Assembly (NCBI GenBank): GCA_963825865.1
Contig: CAWGVG010000015.1
Location: forward strand, 96,001 to 160,000
Direction: 5' to 3'
From: an uncultured Nitrososphaeraceae archaeon
GTDB taxonomy: Archaea; Thermoproteota; Nitrososphaeria; Nitrososphaerales; Nitrososphaeraceae
Length of the DNA stretch: 64,000 nt
Notes under the pieces: model-generated
Told to the model about the DNA's origin: nothing
Databases searched by the model: none
What the model saw: the letters and a program-made list of their open reading frames with translations, nothing else
Shown: in pieces, positions 24,121 to 51,155 of the stretch
Layout of the letters: every line of letters starts with the position of its first letter
Position numbering within the stretch: position 1 is the first letter of the stretch
Translations under genes and position numbers: made by a program

Positions 24121-24214
24121 GGGGCTATCGTCTAGCTTGGTCTAGGATACCATCTCTTATAGAGGTACAGGCCTGGGGCGCTGGCGGTCGTGGGTTCAAA
24201 TCCCACTGGCCCCA
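24121..24214 (+). tRNA. tRNA-Pro(GGG) with 18-nt non-canonical intron (24153-24170)
   Basis: Acceptor stem GGGGCTA/TGGCCCC-A, T arm GTGGG-TTCAAAT-CCCAC; removing 24153-24170 restores anticodon stem CCAGC/GCTGG around CT-GGG-GC. Confidence 0.92.
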
Positions 24215-24273
24215 ATGTGATATTAGTTCTCTAATTGGATTCACTCGAACAGAAAAAAAGTGAAATTAAATAG

Positions 24274-25543
24274 ATGCAAATTGAACAAGGAGAAGGAGAA
24301 CAACAAGAACCAATTGAGGAGGAATCCAATGCATATTCGCTATTTGTATATGCCGTGAGATCACAAATTACAAGGGATTATTATCTGAGACGGTTACGAA
24401 TTTTCTTTAATGATATTAATTTACTTCCTGATGGAGCAATGGAAGAAAGGTGTAATCTGTTTGCTGCAAAGGGATAAAAGATCCAAATTGGGCTTTTCAT
24501 TGCATTGTAAAATTCTTGCAGTTTCAAAGGGAAAGAGTTGAAAAAGAAGAGATTACAGGAGCAACTCTCCGTAACTTTGTAAAAGCTATAAAATTATTCT
24601 GTGAAATGTCTGATATTCCAGTTACATGGAAAAAGATCAGTCGTGGATTACCTAAAATTAGAAGATATGCTGATGATCGCTCACCAACCATACAAGAAAT
24701 TCAGAAAATTTGTGAATATCCTGATAGGAGAATAAAAGGAATAGTGTACACTATGTCATCTACTGGAATCAGGCTTGGCGCATGGGATTACTTACGCTGG
24801 AGACATATAGTGCCAATCAAAAGAGAAGGAAAAATTGTAGCCGCAAAGGTAGTTGTTTATGCTGGAGATGATGAAGAGTATTTTTCATTCATAACTCCTG
24901 AAGCATATTGTGAATTGGAAAAATGGATAGAATATCGTCAGGAATCCGGGGAAAAGGTAGATGTCAATAGCTGGGTAATGAGGCAATTATGGAATACTAA
25001 ACAAGGCCACTACCATCATGGAACAATAAAGGATGCTACTAAACTCAAATCTTCGGGGGTCAAAAGATTAATCGAAGATGCATTATGGACACAAGGAATT
25101 AGAAAGAAATCAAATCTAAAAAGAAACAGATATGAGTTTCAAACAGATCATGGGTTAAGAAAATGGTTTAAAACTCGTTGCGAAATAGCTGGAATGAAAA
25201 GCATAAATATAGAAAAATTGATGGGTCATTCAGTAGGTATATCCGATTCTTACTATAGAGCTACAGAGAATGAACTTTTAGATGATTATTTGAAAGCAGT
25301 TCCTCTACTTACAATAAGCAGCGAGAACAGGCTTCATATACAGATGAAAGAAGTGGTCGAACAATCAAGAAATAACGATGCCAGCATCAAATCTGAATTA
25401 TACGAAAAAGGACAAGCGATTGCTAATTTGACAGAAAGAGACTCATTAACACTGACGCAATAGCTTCTCTATCAGATCAGGTAATGAAACTTATCAAGGA
25501 GATCGAGGTCTTAAAGAGGAACAGAACTAGTGATACAACTTAA
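24274..25543 (+). CDS. Tyrosine recombinase/integrase (frameshifts near 24470 and 25445)
   Basis: STGIRLGAW (R), HGLRKWF (HxxR), LMGH, SDSYYR (Y). Confidence 0.9.
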
Positions 25544-25569
25544 TTCAAAATAAAAAGAAAATTCTTCTA

Positions 25570-25929
25570 TTATCTGTTCAAAGCCGTCCTAACTTCAGGG
25601 AGAGCCAAAGCAAATCCGACATGAATACAATCAAAAGTATCTTCAGAAATACATTTTAAGTTCCTATTTCTTACCTGAACTTCTATCAGTCTTTCATTCT
25701 TTCTCATATCTTTTAATATAACTGTGTCATCATTGAGGCCAACCAACGAGATAAACTGTGCTTCTCTAAGCATTCTACGTCGCTCAAGTTCTATTAGTGC
25801 CGATTCTGAAACGAATGCCAAAAGATAAGTTTGGATGCTTTGCTTTTTCAATGTTATACTTACGTTCTAGTTCTGAGAGCGATTTACCACTTACTGTAAT
25901 AGTCTTTTGTCCTGGTTTTGGCACTACAT
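25570..25929 (-). CDS. Putative RHH-like regulator with C-terminal C-x6-CxH motif
   Basis: Reconstructed with the duplicate copy: MSVPKPGQKTITVSGKSL...FAAFVSESALIEL...KCISEDTFDCIHVGFALALPEV. Confidence 0.6.
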
Positions 25930-26630
25930 GATATGACCTTCTGATATTAATAAATATAACAGCTAATCCAAGTGCGTAACGGTTATTAGCCGTGCCATAG
26001 ATAAAAATATGTGAGCAGAGGCTACAAGACGGTCAGAGCAGAAAGAAGATAGATTGGAAAAAACAAGTGATGCCTGCAGTAAAAGAAAGGTGCAAGCTTC
26101 AATTCACGTGGAATAATACCTACACTGAGGGCAATGTTTTATGCACTTGTTTCTCGCGGAGTGATACCTAATGATCATCATTGAGGCCAACCAACGAGAT
26201 AAACTGTGCTTCTCTAAGCATTCTACGTCGCTCAAGTTCTATTAGTGCCGATTCTGAAACGAATGCTGCAAAAGATAAGTTTGGATGCTTTGCTTTTTCA
26301 ATGTTATACTTACGTTCTAGTTCTGAGAGCGATTTACCACTTACTGTAATAGTCTTTTGTCCTGGTTTTGGCACTGACATGATATGACCTTCTGATATTA
26401 ATAAATATAACAGCTAATCCAAGTGCGTAACGGTTATTAGCCGTGCCATAGATAAAAATATGTGCAGCAGAGGCTACAAGACGGTCAGAGCAGAAAGAAG
26501 ATAGATTGGAAAAAACAAGTGATGCCTGCAGTAAAAGAAAGGCTGCAAGACTTCAATTCACGTGGAATAATACCTACACTGAGGGCAATGTTTTATGCAC
26601 TTGTTTCTCGCGGAGTGATACCTAATGATC
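25727..26630. repeat. ~450-bp tandem duplication of a divergent promoter and both gene 5' ends
   Basis: 25727-26175 is repeated at 26175-26630; the differences I saw are 1-2 bp deletions in the first copy. Confidence 0.9.
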
Positions 26631-27427
26631 AAAAGAAATATCAATACCTGAGCGAGTTTACGGCTAGAGCGAGAGAGAATGGAGAACTACCAATAAATTG
26701 TTTTGCAGACCAAAGCAGAAGAGTAGTACAAGATTTTAACGATATCTATCAATCTCCTGAAAAGTACGTAGATAGAGCTATACAATACTTACAAGATGCA
26801 CCAAATGATTATCTTAACACTATACCTAGATGGCATGAACAACCAGAGTATGTAGAAGTCTGGGTGGAAAAAGACGCTCTCGCAGGCACTTTAAAATCCA
26901 TACTTGGAGATAGACAAATTAGGATTGTGCCTAATAGAGGATTTAGTAGTGTAGCGTTTAGTCACGATAATATTAAAAGGCTAAAGGATTTTCAATACCA
27001 AGGGAAAAGTATTCACATTCTTTACTTTGGTGATTTGGATCCATCTGGGGAAGTCATAGATGAGGTTATTTATAAGAAATTAAGACAATATGGAATATAC
27101 GGAGTTGATTTTAAACGTATAGCAGTAACAGAAGAACAAACAAGGCAGTTCAATTTGCCACATAACCCTGATCCGGAGACCTTGAGCAAGCTAAAAAAGG
27201 ACAGCAGAGCAAAATCCTTCATGAGGAGACATAATGGTGAGCTTTTTCAAATCGAAGTTGATGCGTTACAGGCATATGGCCCTGATGAATTTAAAAGTCT
27301 AGTACAACAGTCTGTGGACAAATACTTTGACCAAGATATTTACAAGGAAGCACTGTCTAATCCGCTACATTCTGAAGAAGGTGAAGTCGCTTTTAAAGAA
27401 TTTAAAATAGAATATGCTTGTCTTTAG
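26462..27427 (+). CDS. Topoisomerase VI-A/Spo11-like Toprim-domain protein
   Basis: TLRAMFYALVS (wHTH, Tyr), VEVWVEKDAL, RGFSS, ILYFGDLDPSG, EVDAL. Confidence 0.75.
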   Translation: MQQRLQDGQSRKKIDWKKQVMPAVKERLQDFNSRGIIPTLRAMFYALVSRGVIPNDQKKYQYLSEFTARARENGELPINCFADQSRRVVQDFNDIYQSPEKYVDRAIQYLQDAPNDYLNTIPRWHEQPEYVEVWVEKDALAGTLKSILGDRQIRIVPNRGFSSVAFSHDNIKRLKDFQYQGKSIHILYFGDLDPSGEVIDEVIYKKLRQYGIYGVDFKRIAVTEEQTRQFNLPHNPDPETLSKLKKDSRAKSFMRRHNGELFQIEVDALQAYGPDEFKSLVQQSVDKYFDQDIYKEALSNPLHSEEGEVAFKEFKIEYACL

Positions 27428-27579
27428 CTTGTTTATAATAGACTAGTTACTGCGATCGTTTTAGTAATCCTGACTGACTAGTGCCGTTATTATTTTTCTT
27501 CTCTAGAATATGTATAATTTAGTCGAGTCATAGCTTGCAATAGTTCTCTTAGGCAAACCGTAGTTATTGATTATACTGT

Positions 27580-27753
27580 ATGGAAAATAATACCAACAAT
27601 AAAGAAGTCACCAAAACCTGGGTTAGTGGACAAAATTCTTGCACACTTGTTATCCCTCGATCGGTGGCCAAGGAATACGGCTTAGACTCGCCTTCGCACG
27701 TAGTAGTAGAGAGGATTCCACAAGGGATCCTGATCAGAAAGCTGGAAGTCTAG
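27580..27753 (+). CDS. AbrB/MazE/SpoVT-family DNA-binding protein
   Basis: MENNTNNKEVTKTWVSGQNSCTLVIPRSVAKEYGLDSPSHVVVERIPQGILIRKLEV* (57 aa). Confidence 0.8.
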   Translation: MENNTNNKEVTKTWVSGQNSCTLVIPRSVAKEYGLDSPSHVVVERIPQGILIRKLEV

Positions 27754-27782: not shown

Positions 27783-28719
27783 ATGATATCTGATAATTTA
27801 CTATCCCACGATGATAATAAAGTTATCCCACATCTAATATTGACCGAGTATCACAGAATGGGTTTTAAGCTAGTACCTCTCGGAGAGGACTCTAAAACCC
27901 CGACCATCAGCTCTACTAATGACATTTACAACGATCCTAATTATTGGACAGAAGAAAAGCTGATCAAAGAGTATTCTAGATTTTCAAATATTGCTACTAC
28001 ATTTGGCATAACTTACACTTCAGAAGGCGAAGCAAACGAGAATAAAAAAGTGTACCTCCACTGCCTGGATATTGATAGTGATAATGTTCTAGCTATTTTA
28101 TTTGACTTCTTAGAGGAGCTGAAATCCAAAACATTTGTAACTAAAACTAAGAAGGATTGCGGTTACCATATTTACTGGTTAAGTCACTCGCAACATACAT
28201 CAATTGGAGCTCGCAGATGCAAACTTGGTTATGAGTTTGAAATCAAGAGTGATAATTCGCTTGGACTTTGTACATTGCCACCCAGCATACACAGGGACGA
28301 TCCTACATTTAGGTATAGAAGTATAGGACTGGATTGTAAAATAACTATTGATGATGGGTTATACCACAAACTGGTAGGTATGCTTTATGATAGGTGTCTC
28401 AAGTCCCAGAACGCCAATGTGATAAAAGATAATCAAAAAGGATTCTAATTTAGCAGGTGTAGATAAAATAACAAAAAGTGAGACTCTTTCTACCGCTACT
28501 TTTAGATCCCTAGATGAACATGCTATAGAACAAGCGGCAGATGCACTTAGGATCAGTTATCAAAGAGGTCATAGAAATTCTATAATTTTTGGTCTTGGTG
28601 GATTATTATTCAAGTCCAGTGTTTCTCTACAAAGTGCACATGATCTGGTTGCCAGGCTATGTGATCATACTAAAGATGAAGAAAAGAGTAGCAGACTGGA
28701 AGTTTTAAACAGCACATAC
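27783..28719 (+). CDS. Bifunctional primase-polymerase plus PriCT-like domain (N-terminal part of probable fusion)
   Basis: GFKLVPL..SKTP, CLDIDS, KTKKDCGYHIYW, LCTLPPSIH; after a slip at an A-run near 28435 the frame reads GHRNSIIFGLGGLLFK and runs in-frame into ORF 28720. Confidence 0.8.
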
Positions 28720-30440
28720 ATGAAGGGTTTAAACGGCGATGACGTTAAAGGCACTGCTCAGCTTCTCGATATATTTACTACATTAAATGGAGGAGATAAA
28801 AATTCTGCAAGACAGTTTTTGAAAGATATCTGTCAGGTTCTAGGTGTGAACGGAAGCATTAGCAATAATGATGAATCTAGTGCACCAACGCCTACTACAA
28901 CTCAAACTCTGATACAACTAGCCAAAGAAAACACCTTATTATTTTTCAAAGATCAATTTGATATCACCTATGCCAAAGTTAAGGTACATCAACATTCTGA
29001 GGTAATAGCACTTGCCAGTTCCAAATTCGAATATCTACTAAGTAAACTCTATTTTGAACATACAAGAGGTGAGGTGGCAGGTCAAGAATCATTAAACAAT
29101 GCTATACGTGTGCTAATTTCACAGACTTTGTTTGACAGTCCAACAGTAACCTTAAACCTAAGGGTTGCATGGGGATGTGAACTGCAAAGTAAAGATTGGG
29201 AAATTTATTACGATCTAGCAGACCCTCTGTGGAGTTGTATTAAGATAACTCAGCAAGATTGGGAAATCATACAAGACCCTCCAGTATTATTTATCCGGTT
29301 TAATCAAAAAGCGCAGATTGAACCTGAGAGAAACTATCCTATTGACATATTTGATAAGTATCTTGATTTAATGCACATAAACAACCCAGACCACAGACTG
29401 TTAATCAAAGTCTGGACTATTGCAGCATTTATTCCAGATATCCCACATCCAATAAGTATTCCATACGGTGAAAAGGGAAGTGTAAAGACCACATACTGCA
29501 AATTCCAAAAAAGGTTAATCGATCCTGACAAAATAGAGCTTCTTACTGTTCCTCAAGAGAAAAGCGAATTTGTGCAACAGCAATATCACAACTACCTTAC
29601 TGTCTACGATAATATCAAAACCGTTCCATATTGGTTTTCTGACGAAGTTTGCAAAGCAATAACGGGAATTGGAAGTAGCAAGAGAAGACTTTACACTGAT
29701 GACGATGATGTGATCTACAGTTACAAACGCCTTCTCATAATAAATGGCATCAATAATAGTCTAACTGAGCCTGATGCCTTAGATCGCAGTATCCTCAAAG
29801 AGTTCGAACGAATAACTGACGATCAGAGAAAGGAAGAGTCCAAGGTAGAGGCTGAATTTGAAGAAATGAAGCCAAAACTTTTAGGATATATATTTGACGT
29901 TTTAGTAAAATCCCTACGAATCAAGCCTAGATAGAATTACGTAACTTGCCCAGGATGGCCGATTTTGCAGTTTGGGGAGAAGCCATTGCAAGGGCCATAG
30001 GCTATAAGCCAATGGAGTTTATTGAGGCATACTATCGAAATATAGGTAGGCAAAATGTAGAAGCAATAGAATCAAATCCGTTAGCTCAGACATTAGATAA
30101 GTTTGTAGATAGCTGGTACAAAGAAGGACAGGAAGCTTGCTGGCAAAGTCCTACTTCTAAGGTTTTAGAAAAGCTAAACAAGACAGCCCAGGCGTATGGT
30201 ATAGACACAAGCAGTAAATTATGGCCTAAAGCCGCCAATTCCTTAACAAAGAGGCTAAGGCCTATACTATCAAACCTAAGGGAGGGTCTAGGAATCCATG
30301 TTGTCATCAGCAGAAACTCTACTGGCAAAAACAAAAACACTTCAACCATAAGAATACTGAAAAAACCTCCACTACCTCCACCATCTCCACCAGACCAAAA
30401 CAAGCACAAAATTATAATGAAAATGGTGGAGGTATATTGA
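28720..30440 (+). CDS. SF3-like helicase/ATPase with C-terminal wHTH-like region (middle of probable fusion)
   Basis: Walker A variant GEKGSVKT, Walker B LTVYDNI, motif C LIINGIN, DALDRS, PRMADF. Confidence 0.75.
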
Positions 30441-30548
30441 GTAGTGGACATACATACCTCCACTCAACAGCATATATCTCCACTAGAAGATATCCAAAAT
30501 CGTGCTCAAAACACAGAAAGTGGAGATAGTGGACATAGTGGAGGTATT
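30363..30548. repeat. Iteron array (putative replication origin) at the helicase/PolB junction
   Basis: Three CTCCAC units at the left end, three GTGGA(G/C) units at the right end, further copies inside. Confidence 0.7.
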
Positions 30549-32609
30549 ATTCCTACCTTAGAGGAGCAGAACCATCTAGACATCGCTGTCAACGATATTC
30601 TGAAAAAGTATGTTGCATTTGACCTCGAATGGACAACATCTTCAGAAGAATCTGCTTCCACAGGATTTGCAACCACATACTCAATAGGAACAAAGATCAC
30701 AGCAGCTGCTTTTGTAGACAATGAAGGGAAAAGCAAAGTCCTACACGTATCAGACTATTCTAATTCCGACAATCCTGAACATGAACTCTTAGTAGATGTT
30801 AATAAAGAGCTGTTAAAGTATGACTATTCACTTGGATGGTATTCTACTGGTGTTGCTATTTATCATGAAGACACTCAAGAGTACCTTGATGGTGTTGACT
30901 CGGATCTTGCTTATTGCATAACAGGTGTTTAGCAAATGGTGTTGATTCTGTAATTGATTTTAATAGCGCAGGTATTCCATACATAAGGGGTCAAAAACAC
31001 ATTGACCTGCATTCTGTATTTGGCAAACCAATGGTACAGACTACAATCTTTAAGAATGCTTACAGAACCCTCAAACTTGAGGAAGTATCCAAAGCTGTAT
31101 TAGGAGACGGTAGTGTTGAAACAGGTGAAGGAAAATACAAAGGGCTAACAGGTAAAGACATTCATACTCTTTCAGTTGAAGAACAAAGGAAGTATGTTCT
31201 AAGAGATGCAGAGCTAGTAATACAACTTTCAAAGCATAACAATGGTGAAGTCCTTGATGCTATGAAATCTATCTCGGAAATAACTGGACTGGATTTTGAA
31301 AGAGTCTGTGGAACTGGCATATCTACATGGTGGGGAGCTATTTTTGATAATATGATGTCTAATGGAGAACACGAATCACCAGCCTTATCATTAACAAAAA
31401 GAAACAAGAACTAACAGATCTAGAGTATAGAGGTGGAATAGTCCTTCAACCAAAGAGGGGACTTTACCATAATCTCATTGTTGTTGATGTTGCGAGTTTG
31501 TACCCTTCAATGGCAATACTTCACAATATATCATTTGACACAATTAACTGTGAATGTTGTAAAGATAGTAATCTTGACTTGAAGACAAACAAAGACATTA
31601 CAAAAGATTGTAGAATAGAAAAAGAATAGAATGGATATGTAAATTAAAAGAAGGTGCGTTTCCAAAGAAATTAAAAGTATTCAAAGAAGAGAGACTACAA
31701 CAAAAGAGACTAGGAAATCAAGTAAAGCAACTAGCTTTAAAAATTCTAATTAATGGCGGGTATGGAGTCTTTGGAAGTCAATATTTCAAGTATTATGATC
31801 CAAGAGTAGCAGAACTAATCACAGCTTATGGTAGACATACACTTTCAAAAATGCAATCAATTGCCAAAGACATAGGCTTTGAAATAGTATATGGAGATAC
31901 TGATTCCCTTATTCCTTCGCTATAACAATAATAATGCAGTATTTATCTCTGAAGGCATGAAAAAATCGTTTCAAGAGTTCAAGAAGAATGTAGCAAACAA
32001 TTGGGAGTTGAAGTAGAACATGCCAAAACATACCAAACTGCAATAATTTCTGATAAAAAAAAGCACTACATTGGTTGGAGTGGCATACAAGGAAAAGAAC
32101 CAGACATAGTAGGAATGGAGGGAGACAAAAATGATAGACCCAGATGGATTAACACTGTATTCAGACAGACAGTATATGATATTATTAGTTCGCAATACTG
32201 ATCCATTGCCAAATCTGAAAAAAGCAATTACTAATTTAGAATCTACATAATGTAAATCCAGAATTACTAAAGAGATCTAATAGACTATCCAAAAATCCAG
32301 AAGAATATGAAAATGAAAATGATCGTAAACGCAAAATAGGGTTAGCGATTGGTGCAAGGAAAGGAGATGTTATAGAGTATTTTGAATCTGACAACAATAA
32401 AGAAGGTTATTCTATAAATCCACAAGACATCAGTATAAAAAAAATACAAAATAATGTTATGGAAAGCAGTTAAGGATATTTTGGAAATTGCAGGTTATGA
32501 CATTGCACAGATAGAACAAGAATTAATTTTTAACAATAGCAAATATGGCCACATAGCAGAGCCTCCCCGTGGCGTGGCCGGGTTACGCCAATTTGCAGCA
32601 AGGAGGTGA
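30444..32609 (+). CDS. polB: Family B DNA polymerase with 3'-5' exonuclease (C-terminal part of probable fusion; several frameshifts)
   Basis: ExoI AFDLEW, ExoIII KYVLRDAE, YRGGIVLQP, region II VDVASLYPSM (~31486), region III KILINGGYG (~31740), region I YGDTDS (~31890), KKHYIG. Confidence 0.92.
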
Positions 32610-32620: not shown

Positions 32621-32973
32621 ATGGCATCAGAAAGTCAAGTATTAAGTCCTAAAGCCAAGGAAAATTTGCAGAGAAATGCAGAGCTAAGACAAAAGGACAA
32701 CAAATTTGTAAAATTCAGCCAAGTGAGAAGAAGGTCTATCAATTCAATCCTGAAAAAATAGAGCAAGTAGAAGCAGAATTTAACGGAAAGAAGAGTCAAA
32801 GATACAGATACACAGTAACAGACCCCAACGACAGCAATCAAGAAAAGTACCTAGACGTAGGAAAGAGAACTTCAGAAGACATTGACGCATATTTAAGTGA
32901 AGGAAAAACATTACTCAAAATTCAAAGGTTTGGCTTAGGCAAGGATACACGATATCACGTTACACAAGCCTAA
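32621..32973 (+). CDS. Putative phage-type single-stranded DNA-binding protein (one frameshift)
   Basis: AGGAGGTGA upstream; MASESQVLSPKAKENLQRNAELRQKDNKFVK...RYRYTVTDPN...LLKIQRFGLGKDTRYHVTQA*; the I-x-R-x-G-x-G-x-DT-x-Y ending resembles phage OB-fold SSBs. Confidence 0.55.
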
Positions 32974-37881: not shown

Positions 37882-38081
37882 AGAATATTTTTTGATAAAT
37901 AAATTCTAGAGGGCTTTACCTTCTTACTATATATGGTATATTGATGTTCCGATTCGTTACTATTATGTTAGCATTGCTATCACTTTGTTGCTTGTGATAT
38001 GATTTGTTTTCCGTGATGACACAATTTTTCTCGTATATGTATGTAGGATCTGTGAATCTTAAATAGTCGAAAAGCACGATA

Positions 38082-38372: not shown

Positions 38373-38399
38373 ATACTACTGTAGGACAGTAGCTCTTCT

Positions 38400-41090: not shown

Positions 41091-41342
41091 CGACGAGATA
41101 TATTTTGGTTACTTCTAGTATGATATAAAAGCATCAGTACCAGTTCATGTCAAGCAAATAAGAAACATATACATCGACGATCAGCAATGATAGATTTGGC
41201 AAAAATGTCACCTAGTAGTAATTAGCCCAATGTGTAACACAAAATACCTTGTAAATTGACAAAGGTATCTTTAGATCTTACTATATACAAGATTTTTTAC
41301 TACTACCTACTTAACAGCTACTACTACTTTTAAGTCTCAACA

Positions 41343-43344
41343 TTATTTCTGAGGGGCAAATACTTGGATACGACTATTTCCATTATCAGATACATACACA
41401 TTACCTGTTTTAGAATCTATAGCAACATAATTTCGACTCTTAAATTGTCCATCTTCGGTACCATAAGAACCCCATTTTGTTATAAAATTACCATTGCTGT
41501 CAAATTTTTGTATACGGTGATTACTACTATCAGCTACATACACATTACCTGAAGAATCAATAGCAATACCTAATGGACTATCGAATTGTCCGTCTTCAGT
41601 ACCATAAGAACCCCATTTTGTTATAAAGTTACCATTGCTGTCAAATTTTTGTATACGGTTATTGCCGTAATCAGCTACATACACATTACCTGAAGAATCA
41701 ACAGCGACACCTTCTAGGATTGAATTGAATTGTCCGTCTTCGGTACCATAAGAACCCCACTTTGTTATAAAATTACCATTGCTGTCAAATTTTTGTATAC
41801 GGTTATTGCCGTAATCAGCTACATACACATTACCTGAAGAGTCAACAGCGACATCATTTGGAAAATGAGAATTGTCCATCTCCAGAACCATGAGATCCCC
41901 ACTTTGTTATAAAATTACCATTGCTGTCAAATTTTTGTATACGGTTATTGCCGTAATCAGCTACATACACATTACCTGAAGAGTCAACAGCGACATCATT
42001 TAGTTGAATGAATTGTCCATCTCCAGAACCTTGAGATCCCCACTTTGTTATAAAATTACCATTGCTGTCAAATTTTTGTATACGGTTATTGCCGTAATCA
42101 GCTACATACACATTACCTGAAGAGTCAACAGTCAACTCCAGTTATAAGATTGAATTGTCCGTCTTCGGTACCATTAGAATCCCCATTTCCTTACAAATGA
42201 ATACTCATTTGAGACATTAACTTTTGTCTGATTACTTGATGCTGTTACTATTGATGGCTTCTGTACAGCGGCTTTCACCGTGACACTCACAATAGATGGA
42301 TTATTACTTGCAGTACCTTTATCATCCTTAACTGTAAGAGAGAATTTCAATATAGTATCAGATGATACACTTGGAGCTGTAAATGATGTTATTGCAGTGT
42401 CTGCACCGCTTAGTGTAACAGATGGACCGGAAGTCTGCATCCATGAGTATGATGTTATATTGCCATCTGGATCTCTACTGCCACTCCCATCTAAAGTAAC
42501 ATTATCACCAGAATTAACTGTCTGATCTAGACCAGGCGTTAGCTGTTGAAGGCTGATGGGGTGGTGGTATATACTTGTCTGTAACTTTAACGTCATCTAC
42601 ACCAGTAGCATTTTTACTATCTCTAACTGTCAGTCTAAATATCAAATCAGTGTCAGCAGATATGTTGTTTGAAGGAGCTGTAAAGGTAGCTATAGTTCTA
42701 TCAGCACCATTTAATGCAACGTTTGGGCCTGCAGTTTGTATCCAGGAATAGATTAATGGATCGTTATCAGGGTCTTTGCTTTTACTTCCATCTAGAGTAA
42801 CAATATATCCTGCATTAACTGTCTGGTCAATACCTGCATCAGCTATTGGAGGGCGGTTGATATGCGTGACAGTAATAGTAACAATGGCTAAATTGTTACT
42901 TTCAGCACCTTTATCATCTTTAGCCGTCAAGGCAAACTTCAATTGGGTATCTGACGGCACATTGGAAGGAGCTGTAAACGTAGGTGAAGCAGTATCATGA
43001 CCGTTCAATGTTACTGCAGGTCCTGCAGTTTGCAACCAAGAATAACTTAATTTATCGTTCGGATCCGGATCAATGGCAACACCAACAAGTGTAACCTTTG
43101 AGCTCTCATTTACTGTCTGGTCTGGACCAACATTGGCTATAGGAGGATGATTAATAGTAACAGGTTTCGAAACAGTAGTATTATTAGTTGGTTTGAATGC
43201 TAATGCTGTATATTTCTTATCTGTAATATTGAGGATAGCAGTAGATAAAAAAACAATATTACTATAAACTAAAATGACCAAGGCCAAAGTTAATACAACC
43301 AAGAGTTTTCGATCCTTATCCATAAGAAAAGTCTTGATTGCCAT
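41343..43344 (-). CDS. Secreted protein C: signal peptide, 3 PKD/Ig-like domains, 6-blade NHL propeller (frameshifts)
   Basis: [13 protein letters not shown] repeats, ~141-bp NHL repeats ending SRIQVFAPQK*. Confidence 0.88.
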
Positions 43345-43771: not shown

Positions 43772-44242
43772 ATGACAATAACAGACAAAAAAGAAAACAT
43801 AATATTAATCAATATTGAATCTACCTCTAAAGAAGAAGAGGATCATGACGAAGACCCAGAAGAGCTAGAACGAATTACCCATAACCTACGAGACGAACTA
43901 ACTGAAATAGATGCAATAGAAAAGGTAGATTTAGTTATCAAAAGAAGGAGAAAAAGCTCCAAAAGGCTCCAAAGCTGGTGCCGAAGTAGTTGCATTGGGT
44001 TCTTTGCTTGTAACTTTAGGGACATCAGCAGTAAGCACTGCTATACCGAATCTTTCTAATGCTCTTCAATCATGGCTTACTCGTCATGAAAGACGTAAAA
44101 TCAGTTTAGAGATTGGAGGAGATAAGATAGAAGTAACAGGCATATCCGATGAACAGCAGGCAGCGGTTGATCGAGTCTTGGATAAGCCGCATAGCATCAG
44201 CAAAGAGAAAAAAAAGGAGAAGTACAGACGGATGGCGCCTGA
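43772..44242 (+). CDS. Effector-associated constant component EACC1-like membrane protein (frameshifts)
   Basis: DPEELERITHNLRDEL...APKGSKAG-like segment, LGSLLVTL, ALQSWLTRH, KISLEIGGDKIEVTGISDEQQ-RLIESW; directly upstream of and overlapping a caspase gene. Confidence 0.8.
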
Positions 44243-46590
44243 AAGACGTTTTGCATTAATCGTAGCCAGCTCGCAATATGTAGATCCAGATCTGCAGAAA
44301 TTGATTGCACCAGCTCAAGACGCTGAAGCATTGGCAAATGTACTACAAGATCCTAACATCGGTGGCTTTGAGGTCAAAACACTGTTAGATGAACCTTCTT
44401 ACAAGGTAAATGAAGAAATCCAGGCATTCTTTAGTGACCGTGGACGAGAGGATCTATTGCTTCTTTATTTTTCGTGTCATGGAATAAAGGATGAAGAGGG
44501 GCAGCTTTACTTTGCTACTTCAAACACTAGCCGTAAGCTGCTAGATGCAACTGCAATTTCGGCTAATTTTGTAAATAGGATGATGTTTCGTAGTCGTTCA
44601 CGCGGCAGCTGTTATTGTTGGACTGCTGCTATAGTGGTGCTTTTGCAAAAGGACTTGTAAGCAGAGCTGATAAAAAAATACATACTGGAGATTACTTTGA
44701 CGAAGGTCGTGGAAGAATAGTATTAACTGCATCAGACTCTATGCAGTATTCTTTTGAAGCAGATACATTGAATGTTGAGGTAAAAGACCCAGGTTCAATC
44801 TTTACTCGTGCCATAATAGATGGATTGAATACAGGAAAGGCTGATCTGGACAAAGATGGCCGAATTTCGTACGATGAACTATATGACTATACATATGATC
44901 GAGTAATAGATGAGACTCCTCTTCAAAGACCAGGTAAGTGGGTGTTTGGTGTAGAAGGAGATGTGATTGTTGCCCGCAATCCCAACTGGAAAGAAGTCAA
45001 CAATAAAGGACCTGTAAAAACAGCCGGGGAGGAAATTGTAACAACAACCACAAAGCCCAAAGAGGTAACAAGCCCTAAAACACCACCATCAGCAGCAGAT
45101 CAACATCACATATCACACCACCACAATCAGATATAGCAAACAAACCTATTCATCAGAAGAAAAATCAACTCCGTCAGCATTAACACCAATAAAAGACATT
45201 ACTCCAACAACAAGGCCATCCAACAATAATAAAAAAAGAGTCATCTCTTCTTACACCACCTTCTGATTTAACCACTACCATTTATAGAAGAAAAAACAGC
45301 CAAGACTGAAAAAAACATAGAGTCAGATATAGAAGAAACAAATAATAAATTCCAAGCAGGCGGTCCGATCATTTACAAAGGATAATACTTTTGTCACTGA
45401 AAGAAGTAGTGGAAATGCTTCTTCTTCTTCGTCATCACAGCCTGTACATGAAAGAAATCTGGCTTAAGCAATCCAACTATATTGTTACCAATTTTAGGAG
45501 GAGGTATCATAGGAGGCATCGTAATTGCTCTTGTTGCAGGTGGAATAATACATTTACCTGGTGGAGGAAATGTACCACCATCAACACCAGCGACTCCGGC
45601 ACAACCACCACCACCACCTACTTCTCTTCTTGCTCCTAACCGTCTACCAGTAGCTAATGCTGGTACAGACCATACAGTCAACGCAGGTGATACTGTTACG
45701 TTAGATGGTACTAAAAGTGCTGATCTTGATGGTAATATAAGGTCATATTCATGGCTACAAACTGCTGGACTACCTGTTACATTAAATGGTGCTAACACAG
45801 CCACACCATCGTTTGTTGCTCCTTCAGATATATCATCTGATCTCTTATTAACCTTCAAGTTGACAGTTAAAGACAACGCAAGTGCTACGAATACAGCCAC
45901 TGTAAATATCACAGTCAAACATGTTACACCAATAATACCACCAGCGTTACCAACACCTGTGGATCATCCTCCTACAGCTACTAACCAATCTGTTACAACT
46001 AACCAGAATACTCCAGTAGATATTACATTAGCAGGAAGTGATCAAGATCAGAATGACACATTGACTGCACATATAGTTACACCACCATTGCATGGAACCT
46101 TAGGTACAATTAACCAGACTACAGGTGTCGTAACCTATACACCAAACCAAGGATTTACCGGAGATGACAGCTTTACCTTCAAGATAAATGATGGTAAAGC
46201 AGATAGCAGCAACACAGCTAAGGTGTCAATAACAGTAAATAACTCTCCAGCAAATAATGGTAATAGTGCTCCTTCTAACCAGACTCAGCAGATATCATCT
46301 TCTAACACTGCTCCCACTGCTACTGACCAATCTATTACAACTAACCTGAATACGCCTGTTGATATTACATTGGCAGGTAGTGATCCAGATCAGAATGATA
46401 CATTAACAGCACTGTAGTGACGAATCCATCTCATGGAACTTTGAGTAATGTCAACCAAGATACTGGTGTTGTAACCTATACACCAAACCAAGATTTCACA
46501 GGAGATGATAGCTTTACATTTAAAGTAAATGATGGTAAAACTGATAGCAGCAATACAGCTACTGTGAATATAAAAGTAGGTGGGGGCTAA
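44232..46590 (+). CDS. Caspase-like (C14) protease, Pro/Thr linker, TM helix, PKD and two Ig-like (Big_9-type) domains; probably one frameshifted gene
   Basis: RRFALIVASSQY-DPDL..L.AP..DA, LYFSCHG (His), LDCCYSGAF (Cys), SIFTRAIIDGL.TG.AD.DKDG.IS; TM LPILGGGIIGGIVIALVAGGII; YTPNQGFTGDDSFTFK-type repeats. Confidence 0.8.
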
Positions 46591-46683
46591 ACAATATAAA
46601 GAGTGGTAATAATACTCCATTAGCTTTACCCAAAATTAGTTAGCGAGCAAATGATAATAACAAAAATATTCAGAAATAAGCAA

Positions 46684-48517
46684 ATGAGAGAGAGATCCCG
46701 CAATTTTCTATTATACTCTTCACTTATTGTTATTTTGTCAGAGCTATTGATATTGTTGCCATCATTTACTACTACTAATACTACTTTACCAAGTATTTCT
46801 AATGTCTATTATAATACAGCATTAGCATTTAAACCAACCAATAAAAATCCATCTATTTTAAGACCACCCATTTCTGTTAATCATTCTCCTGTCAGCTAAT
46901 GTTGGTCCAGACCAAACAATCAATGAAAATGCAACTGTTACACTTGTTGGTGTGGCCATTGATCCAGATCCAAATGATAAATTAACCTATTCATGGATGC
47001 AAACTGCAGGACCTACCGTAACACTGAACCGCCCTAATACATCTTCACCTACATTTACAGCTCCTTCCAATATACCATCCGATACCCAATTGAAGTTTGC
47101 ACTAACAGCTAAGGATGATAAGGGTGCTGCAAGTAACAATTTAGCCATTGTTACTATTACAGTCAAGCATATCAATCGTCCTCCAACAGCTGACGCTGGT
47201 CACTGATCAGACAGTCAATGCAGGTTATGTTGTTACTCTGGATGGCAGTAAGAGCAAAGACCCTGATAGTGGTGATACATTAACCTATTCCTGGGTTCAG
47301 ACTGCTGGTCCTACTGTTACATTAAATGGTGCTGATACATCCATAGCTACTTTTACCGCTCCTAAAGACATATCATCTGACACAGACATGAGATTTCAAT
47401 TAACAGTTACCGATAGCAAAAATGCAACTAATTCTGCTACTGTCAAAATTACAGACAAGTATGTCCCTCCACCCAATCAGCCTCCAACAGCTAACGCTAG
47501 CTCAGATCAGACAGTTAATGCAGGCGATACTGTGACTTTAGATGGTAGCGGAAGTAGAGATCCAGACGGTACCATAACATCATACTCATGGATGCAGACT
47601 TCAGGTCCAGCTGTAACATTGAGCAGTCCATATGTAGCTTCACCAACGTTTACAGCCCCAGGTGTTTCATCTGATACTGAGCTGAAATTCTCACTTACAG
47701 TTACAGATGATAAAGGTGCTGCAAGTAATAATGCTGCCTACTGTGACGGTTACTGTGAAAGCTCCTCCTGCACCGTCGGGTAATATGACATCAGCCGAAG
47801 GTGGTGGTGGTACTAATATGACATCAGCTGCCGCACCATTACCATCGTCTGATGCTACTGCATTATATAATAAAGCTCGGTGATCTTGATAGCCAAGGTA
47901 ACTACACAGGAGCTATAACCTATTTAGACAAGGCTTTAGCTATAGATCCAAATTATAAAGAAGCATTAACTGAGAAAGGTTTAGATCTTAATAACCAGGG
48001 TAACTATGCAGAAGCTATAACCTATTTAGACAAGGCTTTATCTATAGATCCAAATTTCAAAGAAGCATTAAATAATAAAGCTAATGCTCTTGGTAGCCAA
48101 GGTAACTACACAGGAGCTATAACCTATTTAGACAAGGCTTTATCTATAGATCCAAATTTCAAAGAAGCATTATATAATAAAGGTTTTGCTCTTTATAGCC
48201 AGGGTAACTATACTGGAGCTATAAGCTATTTAGACAAGGCTTTATCTATAAATCCAAATTTCAAAGAAGCATTAACTGGTAAGGGAGAAGCTCTTAATAG
48301 CCAGGGTAACTATGCAGAAGCTATAACCTATTTAGACAAGGCTTTAGCTATAGATCCAAATTATAAAGTTGCATTAAACGATAAAGGTTTTGCTCTTTAT
48401 AGCCAGGGTAACTATACTGGAGCTATAAGCTATTATGACAAGGCTTTATCTATAGATCCAAATTTCAAAGAAGCATTAGATAACAAACAAAATGCTCTTT
48501 CTAAGATGGGCCGCTAG
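46684..48517 (+). CDS. Secreted protein D: signal peptide, 3 PKD/Ig-like domains, TPR head (frameshifts)
   Basis: [13 protein letters not shown] repeats very similar to proteins A and C, six 102-bp TPR repeats. Confidence 0.85.
47880..48490 (+). repeat. Six 102-bp tandem TPR-coding repeats
   Basis: tatagatccaaat-like unit recurs at 47941, 48043, 48145, 48247 (variant), 48349, 48451. Confidence 0.95.
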
Positions 48518-48942: not shown

Positions 48943-48992
48943 CTTGCTAGAAGTATAATGAATGCTCAATTGCAGGTAGTTGATTTACAGCG

Positions 48993-49619
48993 CTACTTAT
49001 GAAGTTTGGAACTTCTACTGAGAACTCTTCGATTAACTTCTCTCCAAGTCCAATGGGTTCTAATATTTCTTTGATGAAAATCATCAGGGCTCATTATTAT
49101 ATTTCCACTTGATGTTGATGGCTCAATAGATAATACAGAATTAAGTATTCGATAATTCTTGAAAATACCTTTGTGTGGTAATAGGACAAACCCATCTATT
49201 GTCCAGTCTATTGACAGTGTTTCTCCTTCTCTCCAGGAATTCAAATATTCAATGTCACCAGAATCGACTGCTTTGCTAAAGGAAATGTAACCTCCAGTAT
49301 ATAATTTGGTTTCTTCAGAATGAAGATGAATATTTGTTTCTTTGTTACTTTTCTTAGTTTTGAGTTTTAATATGCATCTTGCATTATTTAACAGAAACAA
49401 TTCATTTACGGTTTCCATCAGTGTATTAAGAAGGTGTGGTGTATCATGAGTGTATATGCCAAAAGGATTAACAACCTTAAATCTCAAAATGATCTTCGGT
49501 TTTGTTTCAGATGGAATTCCTTTATCCTTTCTGTAGCATTTTAGATAATCGTATGTAAGAGCATTTGTATTATTATAATGAATTTTTACATATACAGAAA
49601 TAATATTTTGAGTAGACAA
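48993..49619 (-). CDS. Hypothetical protein
   Basis: 208-aa ORF, no recognised motif. Confidence 0.55.
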   Translation of the reverse strand: MSTQNIISVYVKIHYNNTNALTYDYLKCYRKDKGIPSETKPKIILRFKVVNPFGIYTHDTPHLLNTLMETVNELFLLNNARCILKLKTKKSNKETNIHLHSEETKLYTGGYISFSKAVDSGDIEYLNSWREGETLSIDWTIDGFVLLPHKGIFKNYRILNSVLSIEPSTSSGNIIMSPDDFHQRNIRTHWTWREVNRRVLSRSSKLHK

Positions 49620-49853
49620 TCAGTAATACCGCCCTTTCATTGATATCTTTTTTTAGATCTTTAGAAAATCAATAAAAACCTTCGTAAAAAGTGAATAATT
49701 ATTAAAACGCCCGATGGTATGAAAATATATTTCCAGTACTCTTGAAATGCATAAAGAAGTTTCATAAATGAAATATCGACTATCTTGAAAATGAAGAATG
49801 AGCCGAACTGTTAGAGATAACCTCATTACTATATATGACAATAATAACAATGT

Positions 49854-50327
49854 TTGACCAATACAAAACGCTTAGGTAGGTATAATCGTTATCTCTCCAC
49901 TACTAGCAATAATAATGATAACTCTAGTTCTCAGTCATATTTCAACGAGCTAGCATCATTCTATAAAGATAACAGCAGGAAACCATCGATTGATTTGGAT
50001 AGAACTCTTTTTGGACACAAGCGCACTTCATTACAAAAAGTACTTGCAAATGCTAACAAGGCAATTGAGAAATCAACAAAGTTCATAAATAAAATAAAAT
50101 CAAGACAGCTTGCTTGTGCTAATAGAACAAAATCGATACCTAAAAATGCAACAATAAGAAAAGAATACATCAAATGCGGAAAAGATATGTGTGTGCAAAA
50201 GCATGGGCCTTACTACTACGCTTACTGGAAAGACCCTGAATGCAAGAAACTAAAGAAAAAATACATCGGCGACCATATGCCAAAAAATAAAGAACAAGAA
50301 TCAAAAAATGATAACACTGCTCAGTAA
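49854..50327 (+). CDS. DUF6788-like Zn-ribbon protein of mobile elements
   Basis: EYIKCGKDMCVQKHGPYYYAYWK...LKKKYIG. Confidence 0.75.
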   Translation: MTNTKRLGRYNRYLSTTSNNNDNSSSQSYFNELASFYKDNSRKPSIDLDRTLFGHKRTSLQKVLANANKAIEKSTKFINKIKSRQLACANRTKSIPKNATIRKEYIKCGKDMCVQKHGPYYYAYWKDPECKKLKKKYIGDHMPKNKEQESKNDNTAQ

Positions 50328-50421
50328 CTGGATATCTAAGAATAGCGACTAGATGACATGATGAATAATACAGGCTTGGTTACATAAGATGTGGCGTCAT
50401 TTTTTACAAAATCTTATGTAA

Positions 50422-50790
50422 CTATGATACCTGAGTCTGCAACTTCTTAAGCAAATCTAGATCACTCTTCATCGGGTCAGGAGCAAGAGAAGCAGGAGAA
50501 GAATTATCTTTTTTACTGTCCTCGCCACCTATCTTCTCTAGTAGAGTATCACAAAAGTTGCCTTCTTCTATATCAAATTTCATTGCTTCAATTAATGCTT
50601 CCTGCATGTACTCTGAAAGAGAAGTCTGATATGTATCACAGATAATTTTTAAAACTTGGTGTTGATGTTTTGTCAAGTTTACTTTTTCATTAATCGTAAT
50701 AATATCATCAACAGTGTCTTTATTTTTATTGTTGGTATGAGTCAACTTTGATGATGACAGTGATTTAGTTGAAGATGAAGAATTATCCAT
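50422..50790 (-). CDS. Putative ribbon-helix-helix protein
   Basis: KVNLTKHQHQVLKIICDTYQTSLSEYMQEAL pattern. Confidence 0.55.
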   Translation of the reverse strand: MDNSSSSTKSLSSSKLTHTNNKNKDTVDDIITINEKVNLTKHQHQVLKIICDTYQTSLSEYMQEALIEAMKFDIEEGNFCDTLLEKIGGEDSKKDNSSPASLAPDPMKSDLDLLKKLQTQVS

Positions 50791-51143
50791 TTTGCTATAA
50801 CTAATTATTTCATTTATAGGCTAATATCATTTTCGTTTGCTATATCATGAATGATCTGTCCAATTATCTTTGGACCTAAATATAGAGTTAAATTTGATTC
50901 ACAACCCTATGGATTCGAAACTTCGAATGTTCTATTATATTACTAGCCAACCAGCAATTAAAGTTTAAATCATAAAGTGAGCCTGTAGAAAAAAGTTGAA
51001 CCTCTTTACCACAAAGCATGTAATCTGACATAAATCTTGAGTTATCAAGTCAAAAAATCAATCAAGAAGAAATAGAAACCTTTAAAGCTTTGTTTAATTT
51101 ATTACAAATGAATCCTTTTTTAGAAGTGATATCACAGCGGAAA

Positions 51144-51155
51144 CCACTGGCCCCA
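51144..51155 (+). repeat. Putative attR (copy of the tRNA-Pro 3' end)
   Basis: CCACTGGCCCCA, identical to 24203-24214. Confidence 0.75.

Follow-up and report, generated by a model that had tools for sequence, protein, structure and literature searches.

In the window analysed, a 64,000-nt stretch of one contig of an uncultured Nitrososphaeraceae archaeon, a tRNA-Pro(GGG) gene is followed by an integrase gene, replication genes, small regulators and surface- and secreted-protein cargo, and the 12-bp 3' end of the tRNA gene recurs at the far end of this region. A previous sequence-only reading had listed the same gene content with a cargo of ~15 kb; the content was confirmed, and the cargo measures ~16 kb. 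Features are listed with window coordinates and strand.

24121..24214, +: tRNA-Pro(GGG), with an 18-nt non-canonical intron (24152-24169) and the anticodon at 24175-24177; CCA not encoded
24203..24214, +: attL core, the 12-bp CCACTGGCCCCA, 3' end of tRNA-Pro(GGG)
24215..24273, +: integrase-proximal arm, similar to DNA after the orthologous tRNA in genome G009
24274..25463, +: tyrosine integrase (PF00589, phrog_1), adjoining the att site and not split by integration
25570..25851, -: 93-aa ORF (orf93), no family match in Pfam or PHROGs
25727..26631, no strand: tandem duplication of ~450 bp (copies 98.7% identical) that covers the promoter region of the divergent orf93 and Mini-A
26462..27427, +: Mini-A, stand-alone Topo VI-A-like protein with 5Y-CAP and Toprim (phrog_6247, AF2/Foldseek)
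27571..27750, +: 60-aa ORF, kept upstream of the replicase in relatives; weak AbrB/MazE-like match
27783..32606, +: replicase, PrimPol - superfamily-3-type (S3H) P-loop helicase - PolB (exo and pol), from Pfam and colinearity with genome G148
32653..32970, +: 106-aa ORF (o106), after the replicase in relatives; multi-copy in the genome
33635..36192, -: PKD/NHL surface-protein gene 1, frame-broken, N-terminal hydrophobic anchor
36520..37871, +: two ORFs, one of 224 aa (secreted) and one of 184 aa (SxHxxGxAxD-like motif)
38075..38612, no strand: ~300-bp multi-copy segment, an inverted copy of 48658-48946, then a partial second o106 copy (38458-38612)
38756..43344, -: PKD/NHL surface-protein genes 2 and 3, frame-broken, 72-87% identical to gene 1
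43995..45136, +: EACC1-associated caspase (NF047832, PF00656), one frame break
45482..47783, +: PKD/Big_9/cadherin-like surface-protein genes, frame-broken
47852..48517, +: TPR-repeat protein, 102-nt repeats
48993..49619, -: 208-aa orphan ORF, no match in Pfam, PHROGs or ESM Atlas
49854..50327, +: 157-aa Zn-ribbon-like protein (o157) of the right-end module; multi-copy, weak DUF6788 match
50422..50790, -: 122-aa protein (o122) of the right-end module, ribbon-helix-helix-like by reading
51144..51155, +: attR core, second CCACTGGCCCCA copy, same strand as attL
51156..51394, +: arm and N-terminal stump of a second integrase type, outside the element

Rfam at the gathering threshold gave no tRNA match at 24121-24214, and ARAGORN alone called Ile(tat), 96 nt. 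This call is a miscall, ruled out by alignment and by a deletion scan. The gene is colinear end to end with tRNA-Pro(CGG) on contig C39 and tRNA-Pro(TGG) on contig C29 of the same genome, the 18-nt insertion and the anticodon being the sole differences, and removal of about 18 nt 5' of the anticodon arm yielded the call Pro(ggg). The tRNA-Pro identity proposed earlier thus holds despite ARAGORN. Another, AT-richer 12-mer of the gene has a chance recurrence 63 kb downstream.

By reading, the repeat spans the last four T-stem bases, the 3' acceptor strand and the discriminator of tRNA-Pro, and it terminates exactly on the discriminator base. With up to one mismatch, CCACTGGCCCCA occurs at two sites in the whole window (0.08 expected; two sites were reached in 0 of 100 shuffles) and at none within the element. 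Counting both strands, the whole 4.98-Mb genome has two exact copies in total, at the element ends only (24203-24214 and 51144-51155), and five more sites with one mismatch, which bears out the claim of the sequence-only reading that a GC-rich direct repeat of the tRNA 3' end bounds the region. The unit between the cores measures 26,941 bp (26.9 kb), and its GC content does not distinguish it from its surroundings. An empty site, a comparison proposed in that reading, was sought in five relatives; none was found, and the DNA to the right of the tRNA is non-syntenic there, so that the right boundary is drawn from the repeat and the paralogues only. In the only public sequencing runs, 5-6% of the sampled words are present, and these lie on tiny contigs.

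Homology to other elements sets in directly behind the tRNA. In a member of another genus (G009), the DNA adjoining the orthologous tRNA-Pro(GGG) matches the left arm at positions 2-95 past the core, a stretch that extends into the integrase start (79% identity in 96 aligned columns); in genome G016, the orthologue of this tRNA gene has a related integrase (57% identical) behind it. The first ~50 arm bases also look like the arm that adjoins a 3' fragment of tRNA-Ile on contig C3, a likeness judged by eye, blastn having aligned only positions 311-420 after the core. The integrase matches phrog_1 (integrase, E 8e-10) and, under the Pfam cut-off, PF00589 (E 1.6e-4, 21.9 bits); the residues R, HxxR, H and Y were identified by reading the translation, and the gene has one frame break near 24471-24480.

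Mini-A matches phrog_6247 "DNA topoisomerase" with an E value of 3.6e-47. Across 29 sequences, R41, Y45, E132, E136 and G190-D191-x-D193-P194-x-G196 do not vary, and the AF2 model (pLDDT 87) has Topo VI A structures as top Foldseek matches (1d3y, prob 1.00). Homologues of the downstream 60-aa ORF, whose match to PF04014 (E 0.0025) is under the cut-off, precede the replicase at loci L016 and L027 (both G148:C53), L023 and L121.

The replicase is one gene read as at least seven frame pieces, with PF09250 on 27783-28448 and PF00136 on 31363-31922. G148 has an intact ORF of 1709 aa, whose residues 314-1687 align colinearly with positions 28501-32582 (56-86% identity); this ORF and 56 homologous clusters represent intact, fused relatives, and the catalytic motifs are kept in 12 homologues. 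Metagenome contigs repeatedly show integrase and replicase together in one neighbourhood, with secreted-protein cargo after them.

The cargo in the middle of the element consists of PKD/NHL/Big_9 surface-protein genes with N-terminal hydrophobic anchors, the EACC1-type caspase, both halves of which match NF047832 (profile positions 3-121 and 122-208), and the TPR protein. At 36520..37871, a hydrophobic N-terminus was noted and neither ORF has a Pfam match; the motif of the 184-aa protein may resemble that of LAS-peptidases. The ~300-bp inverted pair, the partial o106 and the three to four PKD/NHL paralogues suggest internal rearrangement. Frame breaks affect the integrase, the replicase and the majority of the cargo genes in the present assembly; since rpoB of the same genome is also frame-split and the breaks adjoin A-runs, the broken genes are probably assembly errors rather than the result of real decay.

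At the right end, the match of o157 to PF20586 (E 0.015) is under the cut-off. Sister elements in the same genome show the order integrase - helicase - PolB - o157 - o122 without PKD cargo (contig C7, ~12.5 kb) and integrase - partial PolB - o106 - o122 (C3), with the o122 copies at their far ends and the C7 copy of o157 after integrase and replicase; this makes the right-end module a part of the backbone, which encloses the cargo. No repeat was found at the far ends of these two sister elements, nor was any repeat of at least 11 bp found for tRNA-adjacent integrases of the family on C7, C10 and C62, where searches extended up to 80 kb or as far as the contig ran. The last ~420 bp before attR (50723-51140) have no counterpart elsewhere in the genome. 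Homology to a different junction, on C26, begins exactly at the right core: positions 51141-51232 are 86-87% identical to C26:62299-62207, and the integrase stump has matches of 47-56% on C5, C8, C32, C43 and C62, followed on C5 by Mini-A and S3H. Because this stump starts right of the second repeat, 51156..51394 appears to be the remnant of an older element and the tRNA-Pro locus a tandem integration site, an arrangement described for tyrosine-recombinase elements in the available part of PMC6563490.

The 26.9-kb region is probably a cryptic integrated element, plasmid-like and self-replicating, of this soil ammonia-oxidizer. Krupovic 2019 (PMC6563490) already reported this type of element in Thaumarchaeota under the name "cryptic integrated elements" (CIEs), which have tRNA 3' targets, att sites with a median of 17 bp and down to 8 bp, and sizes of 2.6-98 kb; examples there are the primpol-S3H elements NitKor_MY1-E1 and NitAQ6f-E4 and the PolB and MCM element ThaMY3-E2. 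The short att, the tRNA 3' target and the size of our element are typical of these. Likenesses to the CIEs in the same portion of that source (PMC6563490) comprise the tyrosine integrase, integration at tRNA 3' ends including those of intron-bearing tRNAs, an MGE-type replication module, a short att (12 bp here, 8-26 bp typically), secreted/surface and stress cargo without virion or conjugation genes, and tandem and nested arrangements. In contrast, PrimPol, helicase and PolB form one polypeptide here, and a Mini-A gene is present, neither of which is mentioned for CIEs in the available part of PMC6563490; the fused enzyme is unusual.

In the mechanism we propose, the tyrosine integrase would have recombined the 12-bp core carried by the circular form of the element with its identical counterpart at the 3' end of tRNA-Pro(GGG), leaving the tRNA intact and the core duplicated at the far end of the 26,941-bp unit. 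To replicate the excised circle, the element would use a three-in-one replicase of its own, with PrimPol making primers, the superfamily-3-type helicase unwinding and the proofreading PolB elongating; Mini-A probably deals with DNA breakage or topology. Control may be exerted by small DNA-binding proteins, AbrB-like before the replicase and Zn-ribbon-like and RHH-like at the right end, while the middle 16 kb would be carried as cargo of anchored PKD/NHL surface proteins, EACC1-caspase and TPR protein. The whole 26.9 kb may be mobile as one unit, and the element may excise, replicate autonomously, be active at present and be transferred from cell to cell.

It is unlikely, though worth weighing, that the region is instead a decayed composite of at least two related elements which integrated in tandem at a hot spot and recombined, with loss of the internal att and duplication of cargo, so that the 12-bp repeat would mark the outer limits of an immobile array. 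The stump of a second element directly after attR, the partial o106 beside the inverted ~300-bp segment, the many frame-broken genes and the fragments of the element's modules strewn throughout the genome are consistent with such a history. However, there is one integrase and one replicase only, no internal core copy exists at up to one mismatch, the module order agrees with that of the C7 sister element, and frame breaks that also affect rpoB, beside A-runs, are poor evidence of decay.

An integrated virus of unrecognised type, forming particles from structural proteins which no current profile detects, is very unlikely. Mini-A type IIB topoisomerase-like proteins were found with free or integrated viruses, and in the available part of that work (Takahashi et al. 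2019/2020, PMC7671362) linked to these only; homologues of our Mini-A occur in 83 phage records (<60% identity; 28-32% in the 12 listed), and several backbone ORFs lack a known family. The protein shares with those of PMC7671362, in the part available, a length of ~300 aa, the RxxFY catalytic-tyrosine motif, the Toprim E and DxDxxG, the Topo VI-A fold, a C-terminal xWELDAL-like box (QIEVDAL here) and the lack of an adjoining B subunit, but resides in an element without recognisable virion genes. Capsid, terminase, portal, relaxase, VirB4 and Cas1 were found neither among 148 stop-to-stop pieces of at least 50 aa searched against PHROGs nor among 28 ORFs and 86 of the 148 pieces searched against Pfam, in agreement with the sequence-only reading, which had recognised no capsid, terminase, relaxase or VirB4 gene. 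The sole exception, a weak match to phrog_74 "terminase small subunit" (E 2.8e-4, no stretch passing alone), was discounted, as it involves the TPR protein and is among 16 repeat-driven matches. The replicase has no close relative in IMG/VR (best 27% identity), a crude hydropathy scan of the backbone coding strand revealed no small ORF with two hydrophobic helices, and virion genes are absent from the related contigs too. The whole assembly, 81.8% complete, gave no match to HK97 capsid, Terminase_6N, CagE_TrbE_VirB or AAA_10. Of the earlier label "integrative plasmid or satellite-like", the first part is the best description, whereas the satellite was dropped for want of a candidate helper in this assembly.

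Least probable of all, and highly improbable, is a chance 12-bp match, with the real element confined to the integrase-to-o106 block (~24.2-33.0 kb) and the PKD/NHL region chromosomal or other: although similarity to G148, the closest intact relative, ends at o106 (~33.0 kb) and chance 12-mer matches to the tRNA do exist, the GC-rich 12-mer is absent elsewhere in the genome, no att-like copy lies near 33 kb, o157 and o122 beside the right repeat form a module of the backbone in sister elements, the right repeat is exactly where a new homology block and the second integrase stump begin, and replicase and o106 of G148 likewise precede secreted-protein cargo.

The cryptic integrated element proposed here may also be compared with pipolins, which are known from bacteria and mitochondria and integrate beside tRNA genes via tyrosine recombinases. 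Both are self-replicating elements with PolB; however, pipolins are defined, in the available part of PMC5695915, by a primer-independent PolB, whereas the PolB here, a match to PF00136, is joined to a primase in one polypeptide. The Family 2 casposon NitNCS1-C1 of Ca. Nitrosotalea shares PolB, a tRNA-Pro site and a thaumarchaeal host, but has, according to the accessible text of PMC6563490, a Cas1 integrase and terminal inverted repeats; our element has a tyrosine integrase, and no Cas1 family match was found in the element or the whole genome. Helicase, archaeo-eukaryotic primase and PolB are also united in one MGE or virus protein in HelPrimPolB (Kazlauskas et al. 2020, PMC7544198) and, in the available part of PMC12205980, fused in GP55, the "four-in-one" replicase of lactococcal phage 1706. 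We found no published description of the order PrimPol-helicase-PolB, which, judged from Pfam positions, distinguishes our replicase from HelPrimPolB; in P0001, the first sequence of the homologue alignment, the Walker A motif lies at residues 640-648.

The window covers positions 96001–160000 of contig C15. The only tRNA gene called in it (24120–24215, 96 nt) was labelled Ile(tat) by ARAGORN, and Rfam at gathering thresholds gave no match for it. When 490 deletion variants were scanned, the outcome was ambiguous: those lacking about 18 nt on the 5' side of the anticodon arm were called Pro(ggg), and those lacking a segment on its 3' side Ile(tat). Identity as tRNA-Ile was discarded because the gene aligns poorly with the tRNA-Ile genes of the source genome, G000; it is colinear with the genome's own tRNA-Pro(CGG) on contig C39 and tRNA-Pro(TGG) on C29, save for an 18-nt insertion and the anticodon. 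On these alignments we read it as tRNA-Pro(GGG), 24121–24214, with a predicted intron at 24152–24169. The 12-mer CCACTGGCCCCA at 24203–24214, which spans the end of the T stem, the 3' acceptor strand and the discriminator base, recurs on the same strand at 51144–51155. Allowing one mismatch, the window has no further site (0.08 expected; two sites in none of 100 shuffles), and the two are also the only exact copies on either strand of G000. An AT-richer 12-mer of the same tRNA recurs 63 kb downstream by chance, which calls for caution with such matches. The proposal of the sequence-only reading that a 12-bp direct repeat of the tRNA-Pro 3' end bounds the region was thus confirmed, with the repeat unique in the genome. 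The two cores, attL and attR, delimit a unit of 26,941 bp, core to core, with the following features.

Features of the integrated element (window coordinates)
24274–25463: tyrosine integrase (phrog_1, E 8e-10; PF00589 at 21.9 bits, below the cut-off of 27.1)
25727–26631: about 450 bp in tandem duplicate (98.7% identity), covering the divergent promoter region between orf93 (a 93-aa ORF) and Mini-A plus the first 57 Mini-A codons
26462–27427: Mini-A, 321 aa (phrog_6247 'DNA topoisomerase', E 3.6e-47)
Directly before the replicase: AbrB-like ORF of 60 aa
27783–32606: replicase, a PrimPol ORF (PF09250) followed by abutting frames
After the replicase: o106, an ORF of 106 aa, found here and in the related genome G148
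33.6–48.5 kb: cargo of surface-protein genes, small ORFs, a caspase and a TPR protein
Within the cargo, minus strand: three frame-broken PKD/NHL genes
Within the cargo, plus strand: PKD/Big_9 genes
Within the cargo: two small ORFs, secreted or without known family
Within the cargo: EACC1-type caspase with one frame break, both halves matched by NF047832
Right end: orphan ORF of 208 aa, o157 (157 aa, Zn-ribbon-like), o122 (122 aa), then the second core

The integrase scored only 30.5 bits against the NCBIfam XerA model (cut-off 220) and contains one frame break, adjoining GGG and AAAA runs. With the core ending at 24214 and the ORF beginning at 24274, the gene lies whole on one side of the core and does not encode an integrase of the SSV ('suicidal') type, whose gene itself contains the att site and is split on integration. 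From 24216 onward the DNA aligns with that right after the orthologous tRNA-Pro(GGG) in G009, a genome of a different genus (79% identity in 96 columns). The matching locus there (G009:C46, about 1210–1300, minus strand) consists of the element arm and the first integrase codons only, and is a deleted remnant of the same element family at the same site. The first ~50 bases of the arm resemble, by eye, the arm after a tRNA-Ile(GAT) 3' fragment on contig C3, next to which lies a 72%-identical integrase, and in G016 an integrase fragment (57% identical) follows the same tRNA. Homology to the related arms starts where the tRNA stops. The arms and integrases found after tRNA ends in G009, on C3 and in G016 indicate that the family targets tRNA 3' ends. 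A TGG(G/A)TTC motif occurs at 24236, 50910 and 51165, and also in flanks in G009, G013 and G014 and on C3 and C26; it follows several tRNA-end cores at a distance of 10–30 nt and also lies 234 nt inside attR, and could be an integrase binding site. Across the window TGGRTTC is not enriched (12 found, 7.4 expected).

The right end is placed at 51155 on account of the unique 12-mer, the o157/o122 module and a new homology block with an integrase stump. The module just inside attR is also seen at the far end of other, sister elements in the same genome: the one on C7, spanning about 12.5 kb and free of PKD cargo, carries integrase, helicase, PolB, o157 and, in the opposite orientation to that in the window, o122; the one on C3 carries integrase, partial PolB, o106 and o122. 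The homology block (51141–51232, 86–87% identical to C26:62299–62207) starts exactly at the core; next to it comes the N-terminal stump of an integrase of a second type, fuller copies of which (e.g. on C5) precede Mini-A and helicase genes. Window 51156–51394 and C26:62207–62299 share the core (one with 1 mismatch), an arm of ~80 bp and the start of the second integrase, and have nothing in common to their left. Both junctions are remnants of another element family that also used tRNA-Pro, and the right end shows the pattern of integration in tandem: the older element, of which a stump is left, would have restored the tRNA end on entry, and the present element would then have used that end as its own target. 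Several observations speak against a clean single unit, namely an inverted pair of ~300 bp (38075–38377 and 48658–48946), a partial second copy of o106 (38458–38612), the PKD/NHL genes in triplicate, and ~420 bp before attR without a paralogue in G000. The sister elements on C3, C7, C10 and C62 showed no direct repeats of at least 12 bp at plausible ends, and the GC content of the region is not distinctive.

The left flank (ABC transporter ATPase, ABC-2 permease and tRNA) was matched in 30 of the 31 genomes searched, G000 counted. Downstream of the tRNA the DNA differs in every relative examined, and no empty site was definable, the right flank not being syntenic in G003, G009, G013, G014 and G016, where the left flank is conserved. 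Among public reads, only three soil or rhizosphere runs contained 5–6% of the sampled words; over 23001–43000 they gave contigs of 150–285 nt, some identical to host flank and element, and yielded neither junctions nor usable coverage. Apparent 'joints' within the PKD/NHL repeats in such contigs were rejected as repeat artefacts of low likeness. The window from 51 to 62 kb consists for the most part of gene fragments. It includes a frame-split GMC oxidoreductase gene (51849–54435), the DNA of which is 88% identical to G016:C194, as against only 65–78% for the conserved host flank versus relatives; this suggests that the gene was gained by recent horizontal transfer.

The replicase appears to join three activities in one protein. 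An intact relative, a 1709-aa ORF on G148:C53, was used as tblastn query; its residues 314–1687 are colinear with 28501–32582 at 56–86% identity, in seven frame pieces. Pfam assigns Prim-Pol to residues 79–268 of the G148 protein and DNA_pol_B to 1285–1604; the P-loop domain between them (GEKGSxKST, Walker A at about 640) is 28.5% identical to a phage 'DNA helicase/primase'. Twelve homologues share, without exception, the DxD of the primase, Walker A, ExoI and the polymerase motifs A, B and C (YGDTDS), and 56 related database clusters, many of 1,560–1,707 aa, derive from soil metagenomes and Nitrososphaera MAGs. At the G148 locus the intact ORF (L027:3326–8455) is followed by an o106 homologue and by genes for a plastocyanin-like protein, a glycosyl hydrolase and a multicopper oxidase; no integrase was recognised near it. 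The idea that o106 is a PriX-like subunit of primase, such as loci L125 and L129 encode, was rejected because there is no similarity. Searches with the helicase part gave nothing in genome contigs or IMG/VR (single-protein locus search) and nothing usable in the PDB (sequence search). An IMG/VR profile search gave no close replicase relative, only distant PolBs at ≤34% identity (≤27% for the strongest); one IMG/VR locus, L031, matched the replicase end to end, but as separate genes, not as a fusion. No iterons were found near the replication genes.

Comparable fusions have been described. The account of the HelPrimPolB group in PMC7544198 places a superfamily-3-type helicase (S3H) and PrimPol N-terminal to PolB, with the helicase named first, and that of phage 1706 GP55 in PMC12205980 has the same three activities fused, again with the helicase named before the primase. 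The order here is PrimPol, helicase, PolB, which differs from the helicase-first order of the HelPrimPolB group as read from its listing in the text. PMC5862659 does not mention PolB, and full-text searches, limited in coverage, found no published description of the PrimPol–helicase–PolB order in archaea. With primase, helicase and proofreading polymerase predicted in ~1,700 residues, the replicase is a candidate minimal replisome for biochemistry.

The broken reading frames of the element could be taken for real pseudogenes, but they are probably not. The G000 assembly (4.98 Mb, 62 contigs, about 35% GC) has an estimated completeness of 81.8%; the Rpb2_6 domain of the essential rpoB lies in three frame pieces (C44:25097–26220), stop-free frames of at least 200 aa cover only 37% of the genome, and 7 of 10 inspected frame-switch sites adjoin A or T runs of 4–8 bases (at five of them a run of at least 5). 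Fragmentation is, for these reasons, weak evidence of decay. Single-base breaks interrupt the integrase, the replicase (about 1,600 aa if whole) and the caspase at 24471–24480, 28426–28448, 29931, 30911, about 31400, about 31620, about 32220, 32437 and 44640. A related element, on a contig from an independent soil metagenome, has the A8 run at 32437 shorter by one base. The assembly appears riddled with single-base indels, which may be the cause of the 81.8% estimate for a 5-Mb genome in 62 contigs. The duplication at 25727–26631 may be real or an assembly artefact.

Mini-A proteins are defined in PMC7671362 as proteins of ~300 aa with the 5Y-CAP tyrosine in RxxY/FY, a Toprim E plus DxDxxG and an xWELDAL (T2BI) box, with no B subunit encoded beside them. 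The protein encoded by 26462–27427 shows the corresponding features: R41 and Y45 (within LRAMFY, an RxxFY motif), E132, E136 and GDLDPSG (GDxDPxG) are invariant among its homologues, a QIEVDAL box is present, and the neighbours are orf93 and the replicase. Homologues occur in 83 phage records, each below 60% identity (28–32% in the 12 listed), and nearly all of 888 database relatives are unnamed. A PDB sequence search gave nothing usable. The AlphaFold2 model (pLDDT 87, pTM 0.81) matched Topo VI A subunits best in Foldseek (1d3y, E 8e-4, probability 1.00), with low TM-scores of 0.32–0.36. Whereas the account in PMC7671362 links Mini-A to viruses, the gene resides here in an element without recognisable virion genes; Mini-A proteins are thus not limited to recognisable viruses.

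The PKD genes of the cargo are 72–87% identical to one another, and each product has an N-terminal hydrophobic anchor. At 43995–48517 an EACC1-associated caspase lies beside cadherin-like/PKD proteins and the TPR protein. EACC1 effectors are part of conflict systems built on NTPases; a partner NTPase was not recognised here, and PADLOC gave weak repeat-driven matches only (PD-T4-6 on the NHL repeats; TPR). The 208-aa orphan ORF had no match in the ESM Atlas.

Casposons carry a Cas1 integrase (casposase) and terminal inverted repeats; here the repeat at the ends is direct, and Cas1 had no match in the whole assembly. Integrative-conjugative elements encode VirB4-/VirD4-type ATPases and pilus genes, and proviruses, be they tailed, double-jelly-roll or spindle-shaped, encode a major capsid protein and a packaging enzyme. 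Known profiles for capsid, portal, terminase, VirB4, VirD4 and VirB6 matched nothing in the element, neither in PHROGs (all 148 stop-to-stop pieces of at least 50 aa) nor in Pfam (28 ORFs and 86 of the 148 pieces). PHROGs matches were limited to integrase, topoisomerase, polymerase, beta-propeller and TPR-driven ones, among which a weak 'terminase small subunit' match inside the TPR protein was discounted. A crude scan of the backbone for proteins with two transmembrane helices gave no candidate. Phage_capsid, Terminase_6N, CagE_TrbE_VirB and AAA_10 also had 0 matches each in the assembly, zeros that at 81.8% completeness mean 'not found' rather than 'absent'.

Thaumarchaeal cryptic integrated elements (CIEs), as defined by Krupovic et al. 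2019 (PMC6563490), range from 2.6 to 98 kb and have the integrase as sole common gene. In that account, tRNA genes, some of them with introns, make up 39 of 68 sites, nearly always with insertion at the 3' end; att repeats have a median of 17 bp and a minimum of 8 bp; replication modules include primpol-S3H, PolB or MCM; and tandem and nested arrays occur. The present element has att direct repeats, one of them in the target gene, an integrase and a thaumarchaeal host (homologous proteins in the host's family are named Nitrososphaera or Nitrososphaeraceae in public sources), and shows no virus or conjugation hallmark that known profiles recognise. Because every CIE feature that could be checked fits, we file it as a CIE: judged from its sequence, a real, site-specifically integrated, plasmid-like unit of a class already known. 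The initial impression of an element without recognisable capsid, terminase or conjugation genes was borne out by Pfam and PHROGs, and its interpretation as an integrative plasmid was largely right, the class itself being already described.

Helicase homologues were found in 52 of 151 genomes of the family (39 of the 103 of high quality) and in 13 of 18 genera. Related metagenome contigs carry integrase, helicase or MCM, and PolB, then secreted-protein cargo, and no virion genes. Within G000, DNA_pol_B gave 24 matches on 15 contigs (including C3, C7, C9, C10, C12, C15, C21, C26, C27, C31, C47, C52, C54 and C57), and more than 30 contigs between them carry dispersed pieces of integrase, Mini-A, helicase, o106, o157 and o122. 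It is conceivable, although we consider it rather unlikely, that the element represents, in integrated form, a family of self-replicating archaeal elements not described so far, defined by the PrimPol–helicase–PolB replicase and Mini-A, widespread in soil ammonia oxidisers and spreading by a route new to archaea. The novelty of the route would follow from the failure to find Cas1 or any capsid, terminase or conjugation gene of a known kind; candidate routes would be vesicles or capsids of a type that has no profile. Such a family may have multiplied within G000, where some of the 24 PolB-family matches may belong to it.

G000 carries an unusually large load of PolB-bearing elements, which are not casposons, no Cas1 having been found. 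One Nitrososphaeraceae genome can hold many such elements without known transfer machinery, which sharpens the question of how 'cryptic' elements pass between cells. Soil ammonia-oxidising archaea are difficult to cultivate and lack genetic tools; the element, small, predicted to be self-replicating, integrating at a 12-bp att site and with a predicted one-protein replisome, offers itself as a basis from which to develop a vector.
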